Positions 1,953-10,047 of a stretch of 64,000 nucleotides of DNA are shown here, piece after piece (position 1 is the first letter of the stretch; each line of letters starts with the position of its first letter). Position numbers and translations under genes: made by a program. The notes under the pieces are model-generated. The model ran no database searches and was not told the origin of the DNA. It saw nothing but the letters and a program-made list of their open reading frames with translations. Source of the DNA: a virus; the IMG/VR virus record IMGVR_UViG_3300037458_001730, positions 1-64,000 of that record; one strand, 5' to 3'.

Positions 1953-2457
1953 GTAAAATTGAACATCCTGCGTAAGATTTTTCTGTCTTATGCTTTTCCA
2001 TTAATTTTTTATCTTTAATATACAAACTAAAAAAAAGGTTTTTCTTGATCTCAAACACAATTTTGTTTTTGTAAAAACCTTGTATAAGATATCCAGACTT
2101 AGATGATTTCCATTTAATTTTACCGTAGCTTTTTTCTATTTCACTTATCGCTTTTTCTTCTTGCTTTTTTGCTAATCTTTTCTTCTCAATCTCTCTTATT
2201 TTGCGTTTAATTTTTTCTTGTGCTTCTTTTATTTTAATTTCATTTAACTCTGACAATCTCTTTCTCTCTTCAAGCTCTTTTTTTAACTTTTCTTTTTCAA
2301 TATTTTCTTTGTCGTTTTGTTCTTGAATTGAAACTATGGTTTTTACAACATTCTCAGCCTCTTTTTTTGTAGGTGGTCTTCCTCTCTTTTTTTTAGGATA
2401 GTCTGGTGGTTGTGGGCCACTCGATTGATCTTGCGGTGTAGATGGTATAATATTCAT
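1903..2457 (-). CDS. Lys/Glu-rich coiled-coil protein with AT-hook motif
   Basis: KKKRGRPPTKK AT-hook; start overlaps the stop of the upstream Rad50-like gene. Confidence 0.6.
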   Translation of the reverse strand: MNIIPSTPQDQSSGPQPPDYPKKKRGRPPTKKEAENVVKTIVSIQEQNDKENIEKEKLKKELEERKRLSELNEIKIKEAQEKIKRKIREIEKKRLAKKQEEKAISEIEKSYGKIKWKSSKSGYLIQGFYKNKIVFEIKKNLFFSLYIKDKKLMEKHKTEKSYAGCSILLNSLKQKSEKLLLAVL

Positions 2458-5297
2458 AAAATATTTATTGTTGTTATTCCAGCTTTTGGATTTTTATCTA
2501 AAACCTCTTGTGTTAAACCATTTCTAACTTTTGTCACTTCTATTATATTATCTGCAAAGTCTTTTATTTCACTTCTGTGCGTAATCACAATAACGTTTTT
2601 ATGTTTATTCTTTAAATAATTTAAAATATTCATTATTTCGAAAGTTAATTCGTCGTCCAAGGTGCCAAAACCTTCATCTATAATACACAGAGATGGTTTG
2701 GTTAAACTACTAATATAATGAAGCGAATCTTTAATGGCTATTGTAGATACGAATTTTTGAGCTCCAGAAGCAAATGATAGTGGCAATGTATCAGATTTGT
2801 CGTCGTTAAAATAAAACGTTTCCACAATGTCGCCATTTTCCAAAATAGATAATTGCAACTTAAAATCTACAGCTTGTTGTAAAATAGTGTTTATTCTATG
2901 GTTTATTAATGGTAATTTTTTTCTTATTATTAGGGCTGGTATCCCGTCTTTATGCATAGCCTGAAGGTATATGGAATATTTTTTGTATTTTTTCTCATAT
3001 TCACTGATATCTATAAGTTTTTGTTTATGGTATTCTATGTTGTTTTCTATAACTTTTAATTCACCGAACAAAATCGTGGATTGTTTGTCCATGTTATAAA
3101 TTGTGACTTTGTAGGCTTGAGAAAGTTCTGATTTGTCATTAATTTGATTTTGTATTTCTAAGTTCTTTTCTTTCTTTGCTTCATTGTTTTTTATTTTTAA
3201 AACTATATCCTCAAACTTTTTAATTTGATTCTTTAGGTCCTCAAGCTTGGATTTTAATGTGTTTAACAAAACTGATTTTTCGTCGACATCTTTGTTGTGT
3301 TTTATAATATCAGCTGACTTCAAAAATAGATCAAGTTTTTCTTTTAAAGAATTAATTTTTTCTACCCTATTTTCTATTGTTTGTTTGATATTTAAAAGTT
3401 TATCGTTGTTGTTTTGAAAAGTTAAATTATGTGATTGACTTTCTTTGTTTTGTTTTATTCTATTTTTTTTATGCTCCATTAATTCTTTAGCAATACGAAT
3501 ATCTTCAAGACACTCTTCTTCTTTTTGTGGGTCAGCCTTCTCTTGAACACTTCCGCAAGTTGGGCAGTTTTTACCTTTAAAAGCAATTAGTTGACCTTCT
3601 AAATTTGTTATTTTTTTAGAAAGTTCTTCTACGCTTTTTTCATATTGCAAAATAACTTCGTCACTCTCAATTGGTTTTAAACTTTTTGAGCTAAGCCAGG
3701 ATTCTAAATTTAATTTATTTGCCGAATCTTTCTTTAAGGACGATTCTTCTAGTGAAATTTGCGATCTAAGTTTATCTTCTGTTACAGAACTATCAAATTG
3801 AAGTTCTTTTTTAAAGTTTTTTGATAACCAATCGGTAAGATCTTCAACCTCTTTTGTTTTAGATTTTATATCCAAATTGCATTGTTCTATTTTATAAGTA
3901 GCAGTACCTATATCTTGTATTTCAACTGGGTCTAATTTTTCAATTTTTTTTGTTAAATTTAAAATTTCAACATCAACATCTTCTTTGCTTTGTGAGGCTT
4001 TGTTTTTTTCATTAACACACTCTTCGTAATTTTTACTTTTATAATCTCTTTCAATAGTTAAAGATTTTATTTTGTCTTCTAAAACTAATTTATCTCCTAG
4101 TTCTTTTTGTTTTTTCTTTATCTCGTTAAACTCTTCTTTTCTGTATTCATATCTGTCTTTATATGATTCTAAACCCAAATACTTACTTACAAGAGTGTTC
4201 TTTGGTTGTTGTGACATGCTTAAATAATCATCCTTGCCACCTTGTGTTTGCAGAGATGTTTTTGTAAAATCATCAAAAGTGCCAATTGCTTTTTCTATTA
4301 ATTTACCAACTTCATTTTTTTCAGCAGTCGCGGAGTCAGATATTTCATTTTCCCATTTTTCATTATCTAAATTTCCGTCTTCATCATATTCAAATTCTAA
4401 TGTTTTATAAGAAACGCCATAACTGTTGGAAGTTGTTCCATCTTTTTTTATGGTTGTTTTTACACTTCTTTCAATTAAATATTTTTTACCATCAATTGTA
4501 ATCCAAAGTTTAACATATCCCTTGTTAGAATCTGTGTAAATATTAACAATGTATTTTGATGAATTTAAATCGCCTCCTAAAATTTCTTTAAATAAACCCC
4601 AAACAAGAACTTTTACAATATTTGATTTGCCGTTGTAATTTTTGCCAAAAACTCCAGTAATACCTCCAAGTAAATCAAAGTCAATTACAATTGGTTTTAT
4701 TGGTAAGGAAAAAATATTGCTTGCTTCCATTTTGTTGAGCTCCCATTTGGCACTATGGTGTTGACTCTCATCTAAACCCAACTCTTGGGTGGTTTCTCTG
4801 TGTAATTTTAGTAAATCTAACTCCTCTTCTTGTGTGCAGCTATAGTTTCCATTTGATATAAATTCTTTCAAATATTCTTCGCTCTCTTTAAGTTCTTCTT
4901 GTTCATCCTCTGCAATAACAATTTCTTTAGCTAAAGCTTCAAATTGTACCTTTACAACTTCGCAGCCGTGTTTGTCTTTTACTAGTCTAACAATTTGATT
5001 TTCCTTTTCTTGTGAAAAGTTTTCTTCGTAATCTTCCCAAACAATGTAGACCTTAGTTTTCTTTTTGTTGCTACTGAATTTTATATGCTCAATTCTTTCT
5101 TCAAATTTTTCACCCTTGGCAATATTTAATTTTGCAAAACCATAATCATTTGGTACAAATTTTCTTTCATGCTTTCTAGTCTCAATGTCCCAAAGAAGAT
5201 ATCCCTTGTCTACAGACTCACCATAGTTTTGTTGCAGAAGTGAACCGCTGTATGCCATCCAGTCATATTTACGCTTTATTTTAATCTTTCTTCCCAT
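2454..5297 (-). CDS. sbcC: Fusion of Mre11/SbcD C-terminal part with Rad50/SbcC (gp46-like) ABC-ATPase
   Basis: N-terminal YSGSLLQQNYGE...KGYLLWD (SbcD YxGS motif); Walker A GKNYNGKS, coiled coil, Zn-hook CPTCG, signature ASGAQ, Walker B/D-loop IIDEGFGTLD, H-loop ITH. Confidence 0.93.
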   Translation of the reverse strand: MGRKIKIKRKYDWMAYSGSLLQQNYGESVDKGYLLWDIETRKHERKFVPNDYGFAKLNIAKGEKFEERIEHIKFSSNKKKTKVYIVWEDYEENFSQEKENQIVRLVKDKHGCEVVKVQFEALAKEIVIAEDEQEELKESEEYLKEFISNGNYSCTQEEELDLLKLHRETTQELGLDESQHHSAKWELNKMEASNIFSLPIKPIVIDFDLLGGITGVFGKNYNGKSNIVKVLVWGLFKEILGGDLNSSKYIVNIYTDSNKGYVKLWITIDGKKYLIERSVKTTIKKDGTTSNSYGVSYKTLEFEYDEDGNLDNEKWENEISDSATAEKNEVGKLIEKAIGTFDDFTKTSLQTQGGKDDYLSMSQQPKNTLVSKYLGLESYKDRYEYRKEEFNEIKKKQKELGDKLVLEDKIKSLTIERDYKSKNYEECVNEKNKASQSKEDVDVEILNLTKKIEKLDPVEIQDIGTATYKIEQCNLDIKSKTKEVEDLTDWLSKNFKKELQFDSSVTEDKLRSQISLEESSLKKDSANKLNLESWLSSKSLKPIESDEVILQYEKSVEELSKKITNLEGQLIAFKGKNCPTCGSVQEKADPQKEEECLEDIRIAKELMEHKKNRIKQNKESQSHNLTFQNNNDKLLNIKQTIENRVEKINSLKEKLDLFLKSADIIKHNKDVDEKSVLLNTLKSKLEDLKNQIKKFEDIVLKIKNNEAKKEKNLEIQNQINDKSELSQAYKVTIYNMDKQSTILFGELKVIENNIEYHKQKLIDISEYEKKYKKYSIYLQAMHKDGIPALIIRKKLPLINHRINTILQQAVDFKLQLSILENGDIVETFYFNDDKSDTLPLSFASGAQKFVSTIAIKDSLHYISSLTKPSLCIIDEGFGTLDDELTFEIMNILNYLKNKHKNVIVITHRSEIKDFADNIIEVTKVRNGLTQEVLDKNPKAGITTINIL

Positions 5298-5490
5298 ATT
5301 GTATTATGTCTAAAAACATTAATTTTAATTTATCATCATGAATAAGTATTTTCATTTCAAAATATAATTCAGTGTAATCTTTGGACGGAACCATACTTGT
5401 TGTTCTGGTTTTATAGTCATACTGCGCTATTTGCGTATCTTTTTCTGGATAACGAATTACTAGTTGTTCAATTCTTTCCAATAAGTTCAT
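5281..5490 (-). CDS. Small hypothetical protein within the insertion that splits the Mre11 gene
   Basis: 69-aa ORF overlapping both neighbours (4 nt and 17 nt), consistent with translational coupling. Confidence 0.6.
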   Translation of the reverse strand: MNLLERIEQLVIRYPEKDTQIAQYDYKTRTTSMVPSKDYTELYFEMKILIHDDKLKLMFLDIIQYGKKD

Positions 5491-6239
5491 ATTCTATTTT
5501 TTAATTTAGTTTCTAAAAATTTAATTATATTATCTTTATATTTTATTCTTATTAAATCAACATTTCGTTGAGCACAGTATTTATTTTTTACTTCGTCTCT
5601 TTCTTTTTGTTTGTTTAATAGGTTTAAACCTTTTATTTTGTCTAAACCATGAAATTCTGGAACATACTTAAAATGTTGCTCTCCGTCATACTCAATGCAT
5701 ACATTCAAATCAGGAAGATAAAAGTCAAAAGGAAGCATCATGCCAGTCTTTGGATTAATGCAATCAGAAAAATATTTTTCAAGTACATAATTAATTCTGT
5801 TGTTTTTTAAAAAATGGACTATTTGGAGTGCAGCATTGCTAAGTTTTTTAATTACGATCTCTTCAGATACTATAGGGGCAGATTTATGTTTCGCTTTTTT
5901 CGATTTCTTTTTGACCTTCTTTTTTGAAATAGTGTTGTTGAAGATGTTTTTGCGAGGAGTTTTTGGGTTTGTGGCTAACAACTTGATTAGCTCTTCTTTT
6001 GTTATTTCTTTTCCTAAAATGTTTTCTTTCCAATTGGTAGCTAATGGCAATTCTAAATTTAGAATTGTTGCCTGTTCAGAGGAGGGCACCTCCCAGTTTC
6101 CAAAAATATATTTTATATAGCCACTTGTGAGTAAAACTTTTTTGTTTTTGGCTTGTGTTTCTAATGACTTTCCTATTGAGGATGCTAAGCAATTTATTTT
6201 TGACTTCCTTACACTTTTGAGACGTTTACTATTCTTCAT
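5487..6239 (-). CDS. Putative free-standing homing endonuclease, Vsr/DUF559-like PD-(D/E)XK family
   Basis: C-terminal LPFDFYLP...CIEYDGEQH...RD..K...LIRI motif; basic N-terminal region. Likely start ATG 6239 (MKNSKR), which overlaps the upstream stop and follows GGAGGTG; the ORF track starts at 6293. Confidence 0.75.
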   Translation of the reverse strand: MKNSKRLKSVRKSKINCLASSIGKSLETQAKNKKVLLTSGYIKYIFGNWEVPSSEQATILNLELPLATNWKENILGKEITKEELIKLLATNPKTPRKNIFNNTISKKKVKKKSKKAKHKSAPIVSEEIVIKKLSNAALQIVHFLKNNRINYVLEKYFSDCINPKTGMMLPFDFYLPDLNVCIEYDGEQHFKYVPEFHGLDKIKGLNLLNKQKERDEVKNKYCAQRNVDLIRIKYKDNIIKFLETKLKNRI

Positions 6240-6960
6240 AACCAACCACCTCCCATCCCTCTTTTTTGTATTTATCCAATTCTGATTCATCAATTATCAT
6301 TGTTTCCTCTTTTTCAAATGTTTGATATTCGTGAATATCGCCCATCATTACAATGTCAAAATTTTTAAAAACTGACGGCTTCCAATGTGTTTCTCCTTGT
6401 ATAATCAAACCATTATCTCCTCTCGCTCCGTTTATTTGACCATGAAATAAAGCTACATAATTTACACCTGGTTGTTTTTCTTCTAATGTAAGAATTTTGT
6501 TATCTTTCATAGAATAAACGCCGTATACAAAATTGTCTGATATTTTATAAAATCCACTATCAGGATAATAATAAACAGCTTTCTTTTGAAAGTCTATTTC
6601 ATCTTTGTTTTCAGCAGTTACAATATATGCTGTTTTATCTGCGTGTTTTTCAATTAAATTTGATAGGTTGAAAATTGGGCTTATTGCGTCCCCTTGTTCT
6701 AATTGCTGTAAATTCATGTCGTGATTACCAAGAATAACATCTGTTGGCGCAACCCTTGATAGACCGATGAGTAACTCTGAAATAAGGTTGAATGAGCCTG
6801 GTGAAATATTAATCTTGTGGTGGCTAATATCGCCAGCTACAACAATCCTGTCAGGCTTAATTTTGTGTAAGTCTTCGATCAGTTTTTTAAATACAGCTCT
6901 GTATTCATCATGTCTTGATCCAAATCTAACTTGTATATCTGCTAAATGCGCAATTTTCAT
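6229..6960 (-). CDS. sbcD: Mre11/SbcD (gp47-like) metallophosphoesterase nuclease, N-terminal fragment
   Basis: HLADIQ, AGDI, GNHD, FHG and GDIH phosphoesterase motifs; lacks the YxGS motif, which begins the 2454-5297 ORF. Confidence 0.9.
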   Translation of the reverse strand: MKIAHLADIQVRFGSRHDEYRAVFKKLIEDLHKIKPDRIVVAGDISHHKINISPGSFNLISELLIGLSRVAPTDVILGNHDMNLQQLEQGDAISPIFNLSNLIEKHADKTAYIVTAENKDEIDFQKKAVYYYPDSGFYKISDNFVYGVYSMKDNKILTLEEKQPGVNYVALFHGQINGARGDNGLIIQGETHWKPSVFKNFDIVMMGDIHEYQTFEKEETMIIDESELDKYKKEGWEVVGYEE

Positions 6961-6968
6961 GTGTGGTA

Positions 6969-7271
6969 TTAATCTTTAATTTGTTGATTCAATAATAATT
7001 TTAAGCGAGAGTTTTCTTCAACCAGTTCTTTAATTCTTTTTGTTGGCTCTGCGGCTGCACCAGCTCCAGCCCAAATAGATACTATCTGATGTTCAGTGCC
7101 TTCTTCTGGGTGAACAAAAGCAATATGCGTCATCATGTGTCTATCTTCGTGTGAAACTTTTAAGATTAATTCAAATAAATCAGCCAACATTTTAAATGTA
7201 TGCTGTCGAAATACTCTTGGGTTTTTATAAGCAAAATATGCTATTTTTAGGGCGTTAATAAATCTTTTCAT
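6969..7271 (-). CDS. Hypothetical protein
   Basis: 100-aa ORF tightly packed in the operon. Confidence 0.65.
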   Translation of the reverse strand: MKRFINALKIAYFAYKNPRVFRQHTFKMLADLFELILKVSHEDRHMMTHIAFVHPEEGTEHQIVSIWAGAGAAAEPTKRIKELVEENSRLKLLLNQQIKD

Positions 7272-7274
7272 TTT

Positions 7275-7589
7275 TTAGTTTTTAGATATTTTGGGACCAA
7301 ATCCATTAACCCCTAAAATATATTTAATAAATTGTTCTTGTATAGCTTTAGAATTTTCTTCGAACCATTTGGATGATTTTGGGTCGTGATTCCAAAACAT
7401 AAAATTTTCAGTATCTCTTTCTATTTTTTCCATTTTTGAAATATTCGCACCATCTTCATCTTGTTTACTCAAAGGAATACTAGATCCCAATTGTACCACG
7501 TCATCCTTATTTTTATATGTATAAAATAATAAAAAACTGGGAAATTCTGTAGCGTTTTTTGCTGATTGGTATAACTCTTTTGTTGTCAT
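7275..7589 (-). CDS. Hypothetical protein
   Basis: 104-aa ORF tightly packed in the operon. Confidence 0.65.
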   Translation of the reverse strand: MTTKELYQSAKNATEFPSFLLFYTYKNKDDVVQLGSSIPLSKQDEDGANISKMEKIERDTENFMFWNHDPKSSKWFEENSKAIQEQFIKYILGVNGFGPKISKN

Positions 7590-7590
7590 T

Positions 7591-8571
7591 TTATTCGTTT
7601 AGTATTTTGTTAATTTCGAAAAGTGTATCAATCTTTTTTGGGTGTTTTAAAATTTCGTTTATTTTTTCTTGTCCATGATCTTCGTATATTTTTGAAACAT
7701 CCTTCCCCCCTTTTAAATCAATAAAATAAACACTTAAACCAAGTGAAGAAAACATGTTGTAAAATTCTGAACTATCTTTAAAAGCATCTGAATCGAGACA
7801 GATTATTACTGTTGATTTATGTTCTAACAATTTGCTTATTAGTAGTGGTGATGGTGATTTTCCAAGCAATGGTATAGAGTTGGGAATCCTATAAGAATCA
7901 AATACACCCTCAACTAAATATACTGGAAGATCCCAGTTGATAAAATATTCGTTATAAATTATGTCATGAACATGAGGGGTATCTGGTTTCCAATATGGCC
8001 GTTTAGCATCTTTTAAGTATGCTCTGGCTTCATAATAATTTGTTAAACCAGCAGCGTTTAAAGATGGCATAATTATTCTAAATTTTCTAGGACCGCTTTC
8101 TGTGTATCCTATTTTATATTTATCAATCTGAGACAAACTTACTTTTCTTTCTATGGTTAAATACTCCCAGGCTAATTCCCACAATCTGCTTTTTCTTTTT
8201 TGTGACAATGGCATATATCCTTCTGGTAATTCACAAACAATTGAGTTATGATCAACTTCTAGATTTTTAAAAATGCTAAAGTTTGCTCTTTCGTATCTTG
8301 GCAAAATAAGCTCTAATCTGGACAAATCATCTTTAGAACCATATTCTTCAACAAGCCTATAAATATAACCACTATATTTGCATTTCCAACATTTAAAAAC
8401 TTTAGAATCAGAACGATAAGCAAGATTAAATTTATTGTCCCCTCTACATTTTGCAGTTGGGCAATTAAATTCCCATTGTAATCTTGTTTCTGCTCCACTT
8501 GAATGGCGTGGGGCTCCAAGAAAATTGTGGATAATATTAGTGATTAAATAATTGTCCTTTTCGCTAGCCAT
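7591..8571 (-). CDS. dnaG: DNA primase (DnaG-type, Zn finger plus TOPRIM)
   Basis: CPTAKC...FKCWKC Zn finger; LVEGVFD and CLDSD TOPRIM motifs; KDVS. Probable start ATG 8571 (track uses TTG 8580). Confidence 0.9.
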   Translation of the reverse strand: MASEKDNYLITNIIHNFLGAPRHSSGAETRLQWEFNCPTAKCRGDNKFNLAYRSDSKVFKCWKCKYSGYIYRLVEEYGSKDDLSRLELILPRYERANFSIFKNLEVDHNSIVCELPEGYMPLSQKRKSRLWELAWEYLTIERKVSLSQIDKYKIGYTESGPRKFRIIMPSLNAAGLTNYYEARAYLKDAKRPYWKPDTPHVHDIIYNEYFINWDLPVYLVEGVFDSYRIPNSIPLLGKSPSPLLISKLLEHKSTVIICLDSDAFKDSSEFYNMFSSLGLSVYFIDLKGGKDVSKIYEDHGQEKINEILKHPKKIDTLFEINKILNE

Positions 8572-8577
8572 ACCATG

Positions 8578-8608
8578 CAAATATAGCTAAAAATCACAAC
8601 TTTAGCAA
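8578..8608 (-). promoter_or_regulatory. Possible Bacteroidota-type sigma promoter (TTG-N20-TAnnTTTG) for the primase operon
   Basis: Minus strand reads TTG (8608-8606), a 20-nt spacer, then TATATTTG (8585-8578) just before the primase start. Single instance. Confidence 0.45.
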
Positions 8609-8687: not shown

Positions 8688-9524
8688 ATGCCACAAATTT
8701 ACATTTATACACTGGAACATCCAATAACTCACGAAATTAGATATATTGGAAAAACAACACAACCTTTAAATAAAAGACTAAAGGCTCATGTATATGAATC
8801 AAAACAGAAGAATAATCATAAATGTAATTGGGTTTACAAGTTAATCACAAATAATCTTACACCTATTATAAAAATATTAGATATAGTTACAGAAAAAGAG
8901 TGGGAGTTTTGGGAATCATATTGGATTGAACAATTTAAAACTTGGGGATATAATTTGGTTAATCAAACTCCAGGTGGAGAGGGTTATAAACATACAGAAG
9001 AAACAAAAAATAAAATAAGAGAAGCTCAACTTGGTAGTAAAGGACATATGTATGGTAAAAAAATGGCCAAAGAAGTAAGAAATAAAATTTCTAAAAGTTT
9101 AGAGGGTAATAGTTTTAGAAAAGGCAAAAAATCCTCTCCAGAAACAATTAAAAAAAACATAAAAAATGCATCTCGATATTGGTTGGGGAAAACTAGAGAT
9201 GAAGAAACAAAAAATAAAATAAAAATTAATCGTAAAGGAAAAGGAATTGGACCAAGACCAGACTTAATTAAAAATGGTAAAGAAAATTATTTTTTTGGTA
9301 AAAATCACACAGAAGAAACCAAAAATCATTTAAGAAAAACAAAAGGAACATCAATAGAGGTTTTTGATATAAACATGCAAAAACTTTTTGAGTTTGATTC
9401 TATTAAACAAGCGGCTAAAGAATTAAAAATGTATAGTGGTGATATAAAAAACTTATTGCAAACTGGTAATATGCAAAATAAGCGTAAAATATATTTTAAA
9501 TATTCTTTTGTCGATCTATCATAA
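8688..9524 (+). CDS. GIY-YIG homing endonuclease with NUMOD3/NUMOD1 repeats
   Basis: YIYTL...RYIGKT, RL..H, E.YWI, YNLVNQTPGGEG; repeated HTEETKNKI and C-terminal FDSIKQAAKEL; inserted antisense to its neighbours. Confidence 0.9.
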   Translation: MPQIYIYTLEHPITHEIRYIGKTTQPLNKRLKAHVYESKQKNNHKCNWVYKLITNNLTPIIKILDIVTEKEWEFWESYWIEQFKTWGYNLVNQTPGGEGYKHTEETKNKIREAQLGSKGHMYGKKMAKEVRNKISKSLEGNSFRKGKKSSPETIKKNIKNASRYWLGKTRDEETKNKIKINRKGKGIGPRPDLIKNGKENYFFGKNHTEETKNHLRKTKGTSIEVFDINMQKLFEFDSIKQAAKELKMYSGDIKNLLQTGNMQNKRKIYFKYSFVDLS

Positions 9525-10047
9525 TTAAAGCGCACAGCCCGATTACGTAGCTGTCGCATACATCGTAATTTTCGTCGAGAAGTTTTCTAGATTTAGGACC
9601 GTATTTCCAATCAATCAATGGTTCCAATTCTTTTACTTTGTTCCAAACTTCATGTTTAATTGAGCCTTCTTTTTCAACATTCATCGTTGGGAACGCTTCT
9701 TTTCTAGCGTGATTTACATTAAAATAAATTGGTTGTATTTTAAATTCCAAGTAAAGATATGAGCTAATCATTCCATTAAAAAAATTCAAAAGTGCAATTG
9801 TTGTTGCTGATGAAAATTTACCCATAAACTTTTTGAGAGGTTCCTCAATAGCTATATAAGCAACATTATATTCTTTTAAAAAAGAAATTGCTTTTTTAAA
9901 CTCTTCTAGCTTTTCAAAAATTGTTAACTTGTCTCCGAATTTTACATAGCTTGCAGTCTCCAATTTACCATCTTCTCTAAATAAAGAATATCCGATGCAG
10001 CTAGTCGAAATGTCTAAACCTAAAATATACTTTGTCTTATTTTCCAT
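9496..10047 (-). CDS. ruvC: RuvC-like Holliday junction resolvase
   Basis: ILGLDISTSCIG, IAIEE and DVCDSY acidic catalytic motifs. Confidence 0.85.
   Translation of the reverse strand: MENKTKYILGLDISTSCIGYSLFREDGKLETASYVKFGDKLTIFEKLEEFKKAISFLKEYNVAYIAIEEPLKKFMGKFSSATTIALLNFFNGMISSYLYLEFKIQPIYFNVNHARKEAFPTMNVEKEGSIKHEVWNKVKELEPLIDWKYGPKSRKLLDENYDVCDSYVIGLCALIMIDRQKNI

Follow-up and report, generated by a model that had tools for sequence, protein, structure and literature searches.

An intein-less, fractured SbcD-like gene was reported from the Lake Gatun GOS data by Dassa, London, Stoddard, Schueler-Furman and Pietrokovski (2009, Nucleic Acids Res 37:2560; PMC2677866), who were also the first to describe the Vsr-like endonuclease family. 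The Lake Gatun locus lacks an intein and consists of two adjacent open reading frames (ORFs) in overlapping frames, on either side of a free-standing Vsr-like endonuclease ORF. At the break, between consecutive conserved motifs, the upstream ORF is longer by 25 residues at its C-terminus and the downstream ORF by 9 at its N-terminus (PMC2677866). In this study, we describe an arrangement of this kind in a 64,000-nucleotide stretch of viral DNA, hereafter the window (positions 1 to 64,000 of the 96-kb IMG/VR record IMGVR_UViG_3300037458_001730). Here a gene for a Mre11-Rad50 (SbcCD) protein is present as two pieces, fragment 1 and fragment 2, separated by an endonuclease ORF and an orphan ORF of 69 amino acids (ORF69). 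We regard it as likely that a single-chain gene was fractured by a mobile cassette and that its two chains reassemble, without splicing, through a small module made of an acidic tail on fragment 1 and a basic head on fragment 2.

Other phage genes are found in pieces together with free-standing endonucleases, namely T4 genes 39/60 with mobA and split gp43 of Aeromonas phage 25. In the split NrdA of Aeh1, insertion-derived, oppositely charged tails are essential, and such tails were predicted elsewhere (Crona et al. 2011, Nucleic Acids Res 39:1381; PMC3045599); tail-like charged extensions were noted by the same authors on gp39 and gp60. The locus in the window resembles Aeh1 NrdA-a/NrdA-b (mobE; Friedrich et al. 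2007; Crona et al. 2011) in that the catalytic domain of an essential phage enzyme is cut between adjacent strands in the company of a free-standing homing endonuclease, and in that the new tails are insertion-derived, oppositely charged and translated, with no splicing. It differs in the host gene, in the endonuclease, which is of the HNH type in Aeh1, and in the polarity of the charges, which is reversed (the C-tail is basic and the N-tail acidic in Aeh1). Moreover, the Aeh1 tails have no database matches and are needed for the dimerisation of heterodimers, not for fragment pairing, whereas tail and head in the window belong to a conserved and widespread module of which one-piece forms exist. 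T4 39/60 and gp43 concern other genes, and no conserved portable module has been reported there.

With the Lake Gatun gene, which we compared by its published description and not by sequence, the window shares adjacent parts on the same strand, an endonuclease between them and extra residues at both new ends; unlike that locus, it has ORF69 between the endonuclease and fragment 2. A preliminary description of this DNA knew of no report of the arrangement for Mre11/Rad50. Such a report exists, namely that of the SbcD-like fractured gene by Dassa et al. Since the same split was published in 2009, the window is a well-documented example and not a new mechanism. The Lake Gatun report dealt with one partial locus; a fused Rad50, the fold and conservation of the extra residues, and contiguous and gap-free forms were not discussed (PMC2677866).

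A Mre11-Rad50 gene in two pieces

Single-chain relatives of the two fragments are encoded by Microcystis phage Mel-JY01 (1066 amino acids) and Tenacibaculum phage pT24 (1310 amino acids) and by many metagenomic sequences (1147-1156 amino acids), the nearest of them 82-87% identical to fragment 2. Natural fused Mre11-Rad50 proteins were also sought in the literature, with no relevant result. Aligned to relatives of 1148-1155 amino acids, fragment 1 corresponds to residues 1-221 and fragment 2 to residue 222 to the end. The cut lies between the GDIH and YxGS motifs, which the preliminary description, speaking of GHxH and YxGS in SbcD, had put about ten residues apart: in unsplit relatives the spacing from GDIH to AYxGS is 11 residues (EYQTFREDETM), and those at 82-87% identity read GDIHEYQTFREDE(T/S)M-AY(C)GS. 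Fragment 1 keeps EYQTFEKEETM, followed by 22 extra residues and a stop; fragment 2 begins with 13 extra residues and continues with MAYSGS. At the DNA level, fragment 1 is homologous to the uninterrupted locus L003 up to its ETM codons, and the homology restarts in fragment 2 at CGT AAA TAT GAC TGG ATG (RKYDWM). These six codons are a diverged second copy of the linker codons (EKEETM at the end of the homologous part of fragment 1, REDESM in the unsplit relative), so that the inserted DNA is bracketed by a duplicated stretch of six codons.

By its matches to Pfam PF00149 (Metallophos, 1.5e-9) and phrog_100 (2.6e-12), fragment 1 belongs to the calcineurin-like/SbcD phosphoesterases, and fragment 2 is SbcC/Rad50-like (phrog_77, 2e-48). 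Across both pieces the Mre11-Rad50 motif set is complete, the Rad50 coiled coil included (Table 1). All five phosphoesterase motifs announced earlier for fragment 1 are present, although motif I reads DIQ and not DxH. Glutamine at this position is common to 73 of 219 relatives, split and fused alike, the remainder having histidine, and it is thus a trait of a subfamily and not damage. The DIQ motif and the orphan ORF69 might still suggest that the gene is simply broken, the phage having lost Mre11-Rad50 function and the pieces now decaying. We consider this highly improbable. Both halves look intact, as had been noted, with all other motifs kept and neither a frameshift nor an internal stop in 1190 codons, the altered motif I is shared with many relatives, and the same two-piece form, its ends conserved, persists in dozens of divergent phages.

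The four ORFs lie end to end on the minus strand without free space. From the stop of fragment 1 to the ATG of fragment 2 there are 931 nucleotides, wholly occupied by the endonuclease ORF and ORF69, in agreement with the preliminary description, whose quotation of the end of fragment 1 and the start of fragment 2 also matches the ORF list exactly. Fragment 1 overlaps the endonuclease ORF, the endonuclease overlaps ORF69 through an ATGA (4 nucleotides), and ORF69 overlaps fragment 2 by 17 nucleotides; this last overlap belongs to ORF69, the 3' end of the endonuclease overlapping ORF69 only. GC content is level across the region. A scan for sigma-70 promoters and terminators found sites no commoner than in shuffled sequence, so that no transcription unit could be defined.

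The stretch is found in DNA sequencing runs of wetland metagenomes. In an independent wetland sample (X3), a Logan contig covers 6132-6565 with zero differences and bridges the junction of fragment 1 and the endonuclease, and the same proteins recur on a second contig of 190 kb; the split arrangement is not an assembly artefact. CheckV gives a completeness of 29% for the 96-kb source record, which is therefore part of a large phage. No second Mre11 copy was found in this record, and blastn of the region against a phage collection gave no match.

Table 1. Features of the fractured Mre11-Rad50 locus in the window.
Feature	Position	Strand	Description
Fragment 1	6229-6960	-	243 amino acids (aa); N-terminal part of the Mre11/SbcD nuclease domain, motifs I-V
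Motif I	6931-6939	-	DIQ, aa 8-10 of fragment 1; DxH is usual in Mre11/SbcD
Further motifs of fragment 1		-	GDISH aa 43, GNHD aa 78, HG aa 173, GDIH aa 207
Acidic tail	6229-6297	-	aa 222-243 of fragment 1, IIDESELDKYKKEGWEVVGYEE and stop; absent from unsplit relatives, with homologous tails on more than 20 other split fragment 1 proteins
Shine-Dalgarno-like run	6246-6254	-	GGGAGGTGG; G-W-E-V-V codons of the tail, 6 nucleotides before ATG 6239
Endonuclease ORF, longest reading	5487-6293	-	268 aa from TTG
Endonuclease, likely start	5487-6239	-	250 aa from ATG 6239
Endonuclease, C-terminal domain	5490-5846	-	aa 132-250; Vsr-like PD-(D/E)XK fold
ORF69	5281-5490	-	69 aa, orphan
Fragment 2	2454-5297	-	947 aa; remainder of Mre11 from YSGS, capping region, full Rad50
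Basic head	5256-5297	-	MGRKIKIKRKYDWM, net charge +5; last 6 codons RKYDWM
Walker A	4623-4646	-	GKNYNGKS, aa 218 of fragment 2
Zinc hook	3555-3566	-	CPTC, aa 578 of fragment 2
Signature motif	2754-2768	-	SGAQK, aa 844 of fragment 2
Walker B	2664-2678	-	DEGFG, aa 874 of fragment 2
H-loop		-	ITH, aa 905 of fragment 2

The acidic tail and the basic head

A search of 1.8 billion representative proteins with fragment 1 yielded 2625 relatives, mostly fused proteins of 1020-1190 amino acids. About 20 of them are 219-267 amino acids long, 33-50% identical to fragment 1, and end after a similar tail. From the alignment of split fragment 1 proteins, the tail consensus is IDExELExYxxxGWEI, followed by one to four residues; tails can be aligned between relatives whose overall identity is just 31-48% (63-64% for the split loci L016, L018 and L022). 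Proteins of the fragment 2 type (939-949 amino acids) begin MGxK(I/V)x(I)RRK, and in the two most similar split relatives, P0034 and P0039, the heads match that of the window. The net charge of the window's tail, counted from residue 216 to the stop, is -7, and in each of 16 tail/head pairs read from loci, all with homologous ends, the tail is negative (-3 to -10) and the head positive (+1 to +6). Over tail and head codons, pN/pS (Nei-Gojobori) was 0.1-0.6 in 8 pairs; judged by these ratios, tail and head are under purifying selection.

Tail and head also occur in one chain, with a short turn between them, in P0127, P0124, P0052/54, P0231, L066 and L114. An AlphaFold2 model of P0127 (77-row alignment) has a mean pLDDT of 85.5 overall and 85-86 over residues 211-250, and the whole model matches Mre11 and Rad50 structures with a Foldseek probability of 1.0. 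It predicts a strand (211-221), a helix (223-231), a strand (235-240), a five-residue turn (241-245) and a further strand (246-257), the turn being the position where split forms end and restart. The output consists of secondary structure and confidence only, so that the pairing of the strands is deduced from hairpin geometry. The preliminary description had proposed that acidic tail and basic head form one beta-alpha-beta-beta module cut at a hairpin, and the contiguous homologues and the P0127 model lend this computational support. The check that it proposed, whether uninterrupted homologues hold the two peptides contiguously, came out positive in a few of them and negative in the closest (82-87% identical) unsplit relatives, which lack the module. 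Supported by computation, the acidic and basic ends look like the halves of one small conserved fold holding the pieces together.

In the fused gene of L112, the linker after GDIH reads ...QEQGWENGIRKPVVVY and looks like an eroded remnant of tail and head, which hints that some fused genes descend from split ones.

The insertion is located in a highly conserved active-site region, a frequent site of phage introns and inteins, and relatives of this endonuclease family occur in group I introns. One may therefore ask if the intervening 0.93 kb is removed or bypassed, by way of a group I/II intron, a split intein or translational bypass, to give a full-length chain. We consider this extremely improbable. 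Rfam group I/II intron models did not match even at E<=10 with permissive filters over 4800-7000, nor, for the window as a whole, at the gathering score. Pfam gives no Hint/intein match; the first residue of the tail is Ile and that at +1 is Ala, the end of the head reads ...DWM (no HN), and pieces of 22 and 13 residues fall well below the size of a split intein. As proteins, tail and head are conserved and under purifying selection, whereas they would be intron sequence if splicing took place at the homology borders. Contigs from two metatranscriptome libraries map to 5537-5797, 5724-5874 and 6099-6249, within the endonuclease ORF and over its start. In these three short contigs, whose cover is thin and which may include carried-over DNA, no joint bypasses the gap.

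Gap contents and history of the split

That the gap carries an endonuclease was recognised in the preliminary description, and it is of the homing type by its PHROG homing-endonuclease families (phrog_9084, 1.6e-24) and by the Vsr-like fold of its C-terminal domain. In an AlphaFold2 model, residues 125-250 are confident (pLDDT above 94); the N-terminal half has no match and is modelled at low confidence. VIA re-alignment of the model to Vsr (1cw0_A) gave Z 10.6 and a root-mean-square deviation (rmsd) of 2.7 over 108 residues, and to the I-Bth0305I catalytic domain (3r3p_A) Z 10.2 and an rmsd of 2.9 over 91 of 97 residues; Foldseek by itself gave E>=0.01. Among 58 sequences, E183, D185 and D215 are invariant and H189 nearly so. 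The C-terminal fold and the E/D/H/D positions are thus kept as in I-Bth0305I and the Vsr-like (EDxHD) endonucleases (Taylor et al. 2011, Nucleic Acids Res 39:9705; PDB 3R3P). Unlike I-Bth0305I, the enzyme has an unrelated N-terminal half and is free-standing in a fractured gene, not intron-encoded, and phmmer against the PDB gave chance matches only, with none to 3R3P. The C-terminal domain occurs in 454 phage records, frequently more than once per record, and in about 1500 PF05265/PF14311-carrying metagenomic proteins. In IMG/VR the endonuclease has no close relative, one 52% match being confined to the nuclease domain, and it has no paralogue in the 96-kb record.

The preliminary description let the endonuclease begin at TTG 6293; the ATG at 6239, 6 nucleotides after GGGAGGTGG, is the most likely start. 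In gap-free relatives the equivalent tail codons (GAGGTGAT, GGAGA) stand directly before the start of fragment 2, where they would serve as its ribosome-binding site. In the window this Shine-Dalgarno-like run precedes the endonuclease instead. Unlike the fractured-gene type of Dassa et al., the window shows no hairpin upstream (5') of the endonuclease, the RNA fold of 6225-6330 having -5.9 kcal/mol and a z-score of 0.39. ORF69 has no match in Pfam, PHROG or NCBIfam, and a search of 5.8 billion proteins gave no relative. Perhaps it is a relic, serving only as a translational relay to fragment 2.

What fills the gap varies among relatives. We fetched 80 loci with the fragment 1 alignment as an unselected sample, of which 68 are fused and 12 split. 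No gap is present in 6 or 7 of the 12: the halves overlap through ATGA or GTGA in L042, L051, L062, L064 and L081, and in L041 an in-frame TGA and one codon (3 nucleotides) lie between them, L073 being probably of the same type. (Readthrough or recoding of the TGA at L041:5700-5760 would yield a single chain.) In five split loci (L056, L078, L080, L084, L088) a gap of 915 nucleotides holds a conserved 312-amino-acid ORF (L056:5656-6594) with a weak DUF354 match only and no nuclease signature. In another clade, the 2.3-kb gap of L022 (3736-6022) contains a 155-amino-acid ORF, an N6/N4 methylase broken into ORFs of 85 and 166 amino acids, and a 299-amino-acid Vsr-like endonuclease that belongs to the same PHROG families as that of the window and overlaps fragment 2. 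In L016 the gap holds a 124-amino-acid chimera ending in a remnant of the L022-type nuclease domain, and in L018 two small ORFs and no nuclease; the L018 counterpart (157 amino acids, 5475-5948) of the 155-amino-acid ORF matches the start of head-maturation proteases (phrog_207). The split and the two ends are thus constant and the content is not, and since relatives are split at the same point without an endonuclease, the endonuclease is a variable passenger. Taken as a series, the gaps fit stages of a homing cycle, with an intact endonuclease (L022), a remnant (L016), other cargo (L018 and the L056 group) or no gap (L042, L051, L062, L064, L081).

To place these states on a phylogeny, a FastTree was computed from 113 sequences (36 split, 75 fused, 2 fused with the module), using YxGS and everything after it and excluding the trait's own columns; the tree is approximate and gives no direction of change. 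Well-supported branches force at least 16 changes between split and fused states, several split/fused sister pairs are separated by branch lengths under 0.1, and the window is nested in a clade of four otherwise fused genes. This patchy distribution fits a mobile cassette, gained repeatedly by homing and lost or replaced by recombination.

The same observations bear on the order of events. The preliminary description had taken the insertion as the cause of the split and had named relatives split at the same site without the endonuclease as evidence that would refute this. In part such relatives exist, at least 6 loci being split at the same site gap-free and 6 more with non-nuclease cargo. The two-piece form with its module and overlapping stop and start may then have existed first, its junction becoming a landing site for endonucleases and other cargo later, so that the endonuclease of the window would not be the cause of the split. 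The gap-free loci (6 or 7 of 12 in the sample of 80) are what such a history would leave, as is cargo that differs by lineage (endonuclease, methylase, the 312-amino-acid non-nuclease ORF, small ORFs). The endonuclease of the window, moreover, uses the Shine-Dalgarno-like run that serves fragment 2 in gap-free relatives, and contiguous module-bearing forms exist. On the other side, the window and several other split genes are closest to module-free fused genes, and with at least 16 state changes the split-plus-module allele has therefore moved or been lost often, which needs a driver; the endonuclease remnant in L016 shows decay after invasion. We judge a split that came first to be unlikely, albeit by no means negligible, and for this lineage the two orders of events are compatible.

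In its surroundings the window shares with relatives the order RuvC-like gene, primase, small ORFs, Mre11-Rad50 and a basic 181-amino-acid protein. A 104-amino-acid ORF (7275-7589, minus strand) between the primase and a 100-amino-acid ORF has no counterpart in L003 and L004, where those two neighbours are adjacent. Between the primase (7591-8580) and the RuvC-like gene (9496-10047), and on the other strand, is a second free-standing homing endonuclease (8688-9524, plus strand; GIY-YIG, NUMOD3 and NUMOD1); as the primase and RuvC-like genes are directly adjacent in L003 and L004, it looks like another insertion. L003 (4487-5359), L004 and L008 carry, directly upstream of the uninterrupted Mre11-Rad50 gene and overlapping its start by 4 nucleotides, a 290-amino-acid ORF with a Cys-rich N-terminus (phrog_22215) that is absent from the window. 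In DNA run X4, one contig has 299 extra letters between 7271 and 7272, that is between the 100- and the 104-amino-acid ORF, and another (4944-5168) carries a diverged fragment 2 allele that departs from the window at 5168 and still encodes ...LLWDVENKTH. A related strain therefore co-occurs in the X4 sample.

Proposed reassembly of the nuclease and its implications

In the reading we prefer, the 11-residue linker that joins motif V (GDIH) to the YxGS strand would harbour a mobile cassette. This cassette would comprise the tail codons with their stop, the gene of the Vsr-like homing endonuclease, ORF69, and the start codon and codons of the head. The four ORFs are probably carried on one transcript, and their translation would be coupled through the Shine-Dalgarno-like run in the tail codons, the ATGA overlap and the 17-nucleotide overlap. 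The two polypeptides would then come together again with no splicing of RNA or protein: the strand-helix-strand of the acidic tail and the strand of the basic head would complete a beta-alpha-beta-beta module across the hairpin, and the completed module would help the halves of the nuclease domain to dock. The tail/head module would be the constant part of the element throughout the phage family, with the endonuclease as an exchangeable passenger, which promotes invasion of uninterrupted alleles and in time decays or gives way to other cargo. The data themselves show how the locus is built, that tails and heads are homologous, that contiguous forms exist, what fold is predicted, how patchy the phylogeny is, and that intron and intein signatures are absent. 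Fragment association, the activity and target of the endonuclease, co-transcription and the direction of the evolutionary events are what we infer here.

Several points weigh against this account. The modelled fold is that of a 51%-identical contiguous homologue and not of the window's own fragments. Conservation of GWEVV in the tail could partly reflect a second role as ribosome-binding site. The tails of Aeh1 NrdA are dispensable for fragment association and needed for higher-order assembly (PMC3045599), and by analogy a mere clasp may be too simple a picture. The RNA evidence consists of three short contigs from libraries that may contain DNA, and the tree comes from FastTree only. Finally, an endonuclease is present in only 2-3 of 16 split loci examined, and the split may therefore predate it and be independent of it.

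Tentatively, and with somewhat less than even confidence, we suggest that the tail/head pair is a portable heterodimerising mini-domain which travels with the cassette as an antidote to gene breakage, the junction being a reusable slot for endonucleases and other cargo. In T4, gp46/47 is the nuclease processing the double-strand breaks on which homing depends. By analogy, the gene broken here would encode the very nuclease on which homing relies, and the element would then be selected to keep the host gene working.

Beyond the single published locus, what is new here is that the extra ends belong to a conserved, foldable module, that split, split-with-cargo and one-piece states exist side by side, and that the module has been gained or lost many times. 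The locus adds a complete example of a rarely documented way for a gene to survive breakage, namely non-covalent reassembly through peptides supplied by the invader. Annotators are given a reason not to label such pairs as pseudogenes. Because the peptide pair is short, tail function and portability can be tested; if the 22 and 13 residues suffice for pairing, they would be a natural, ready-made split tag.

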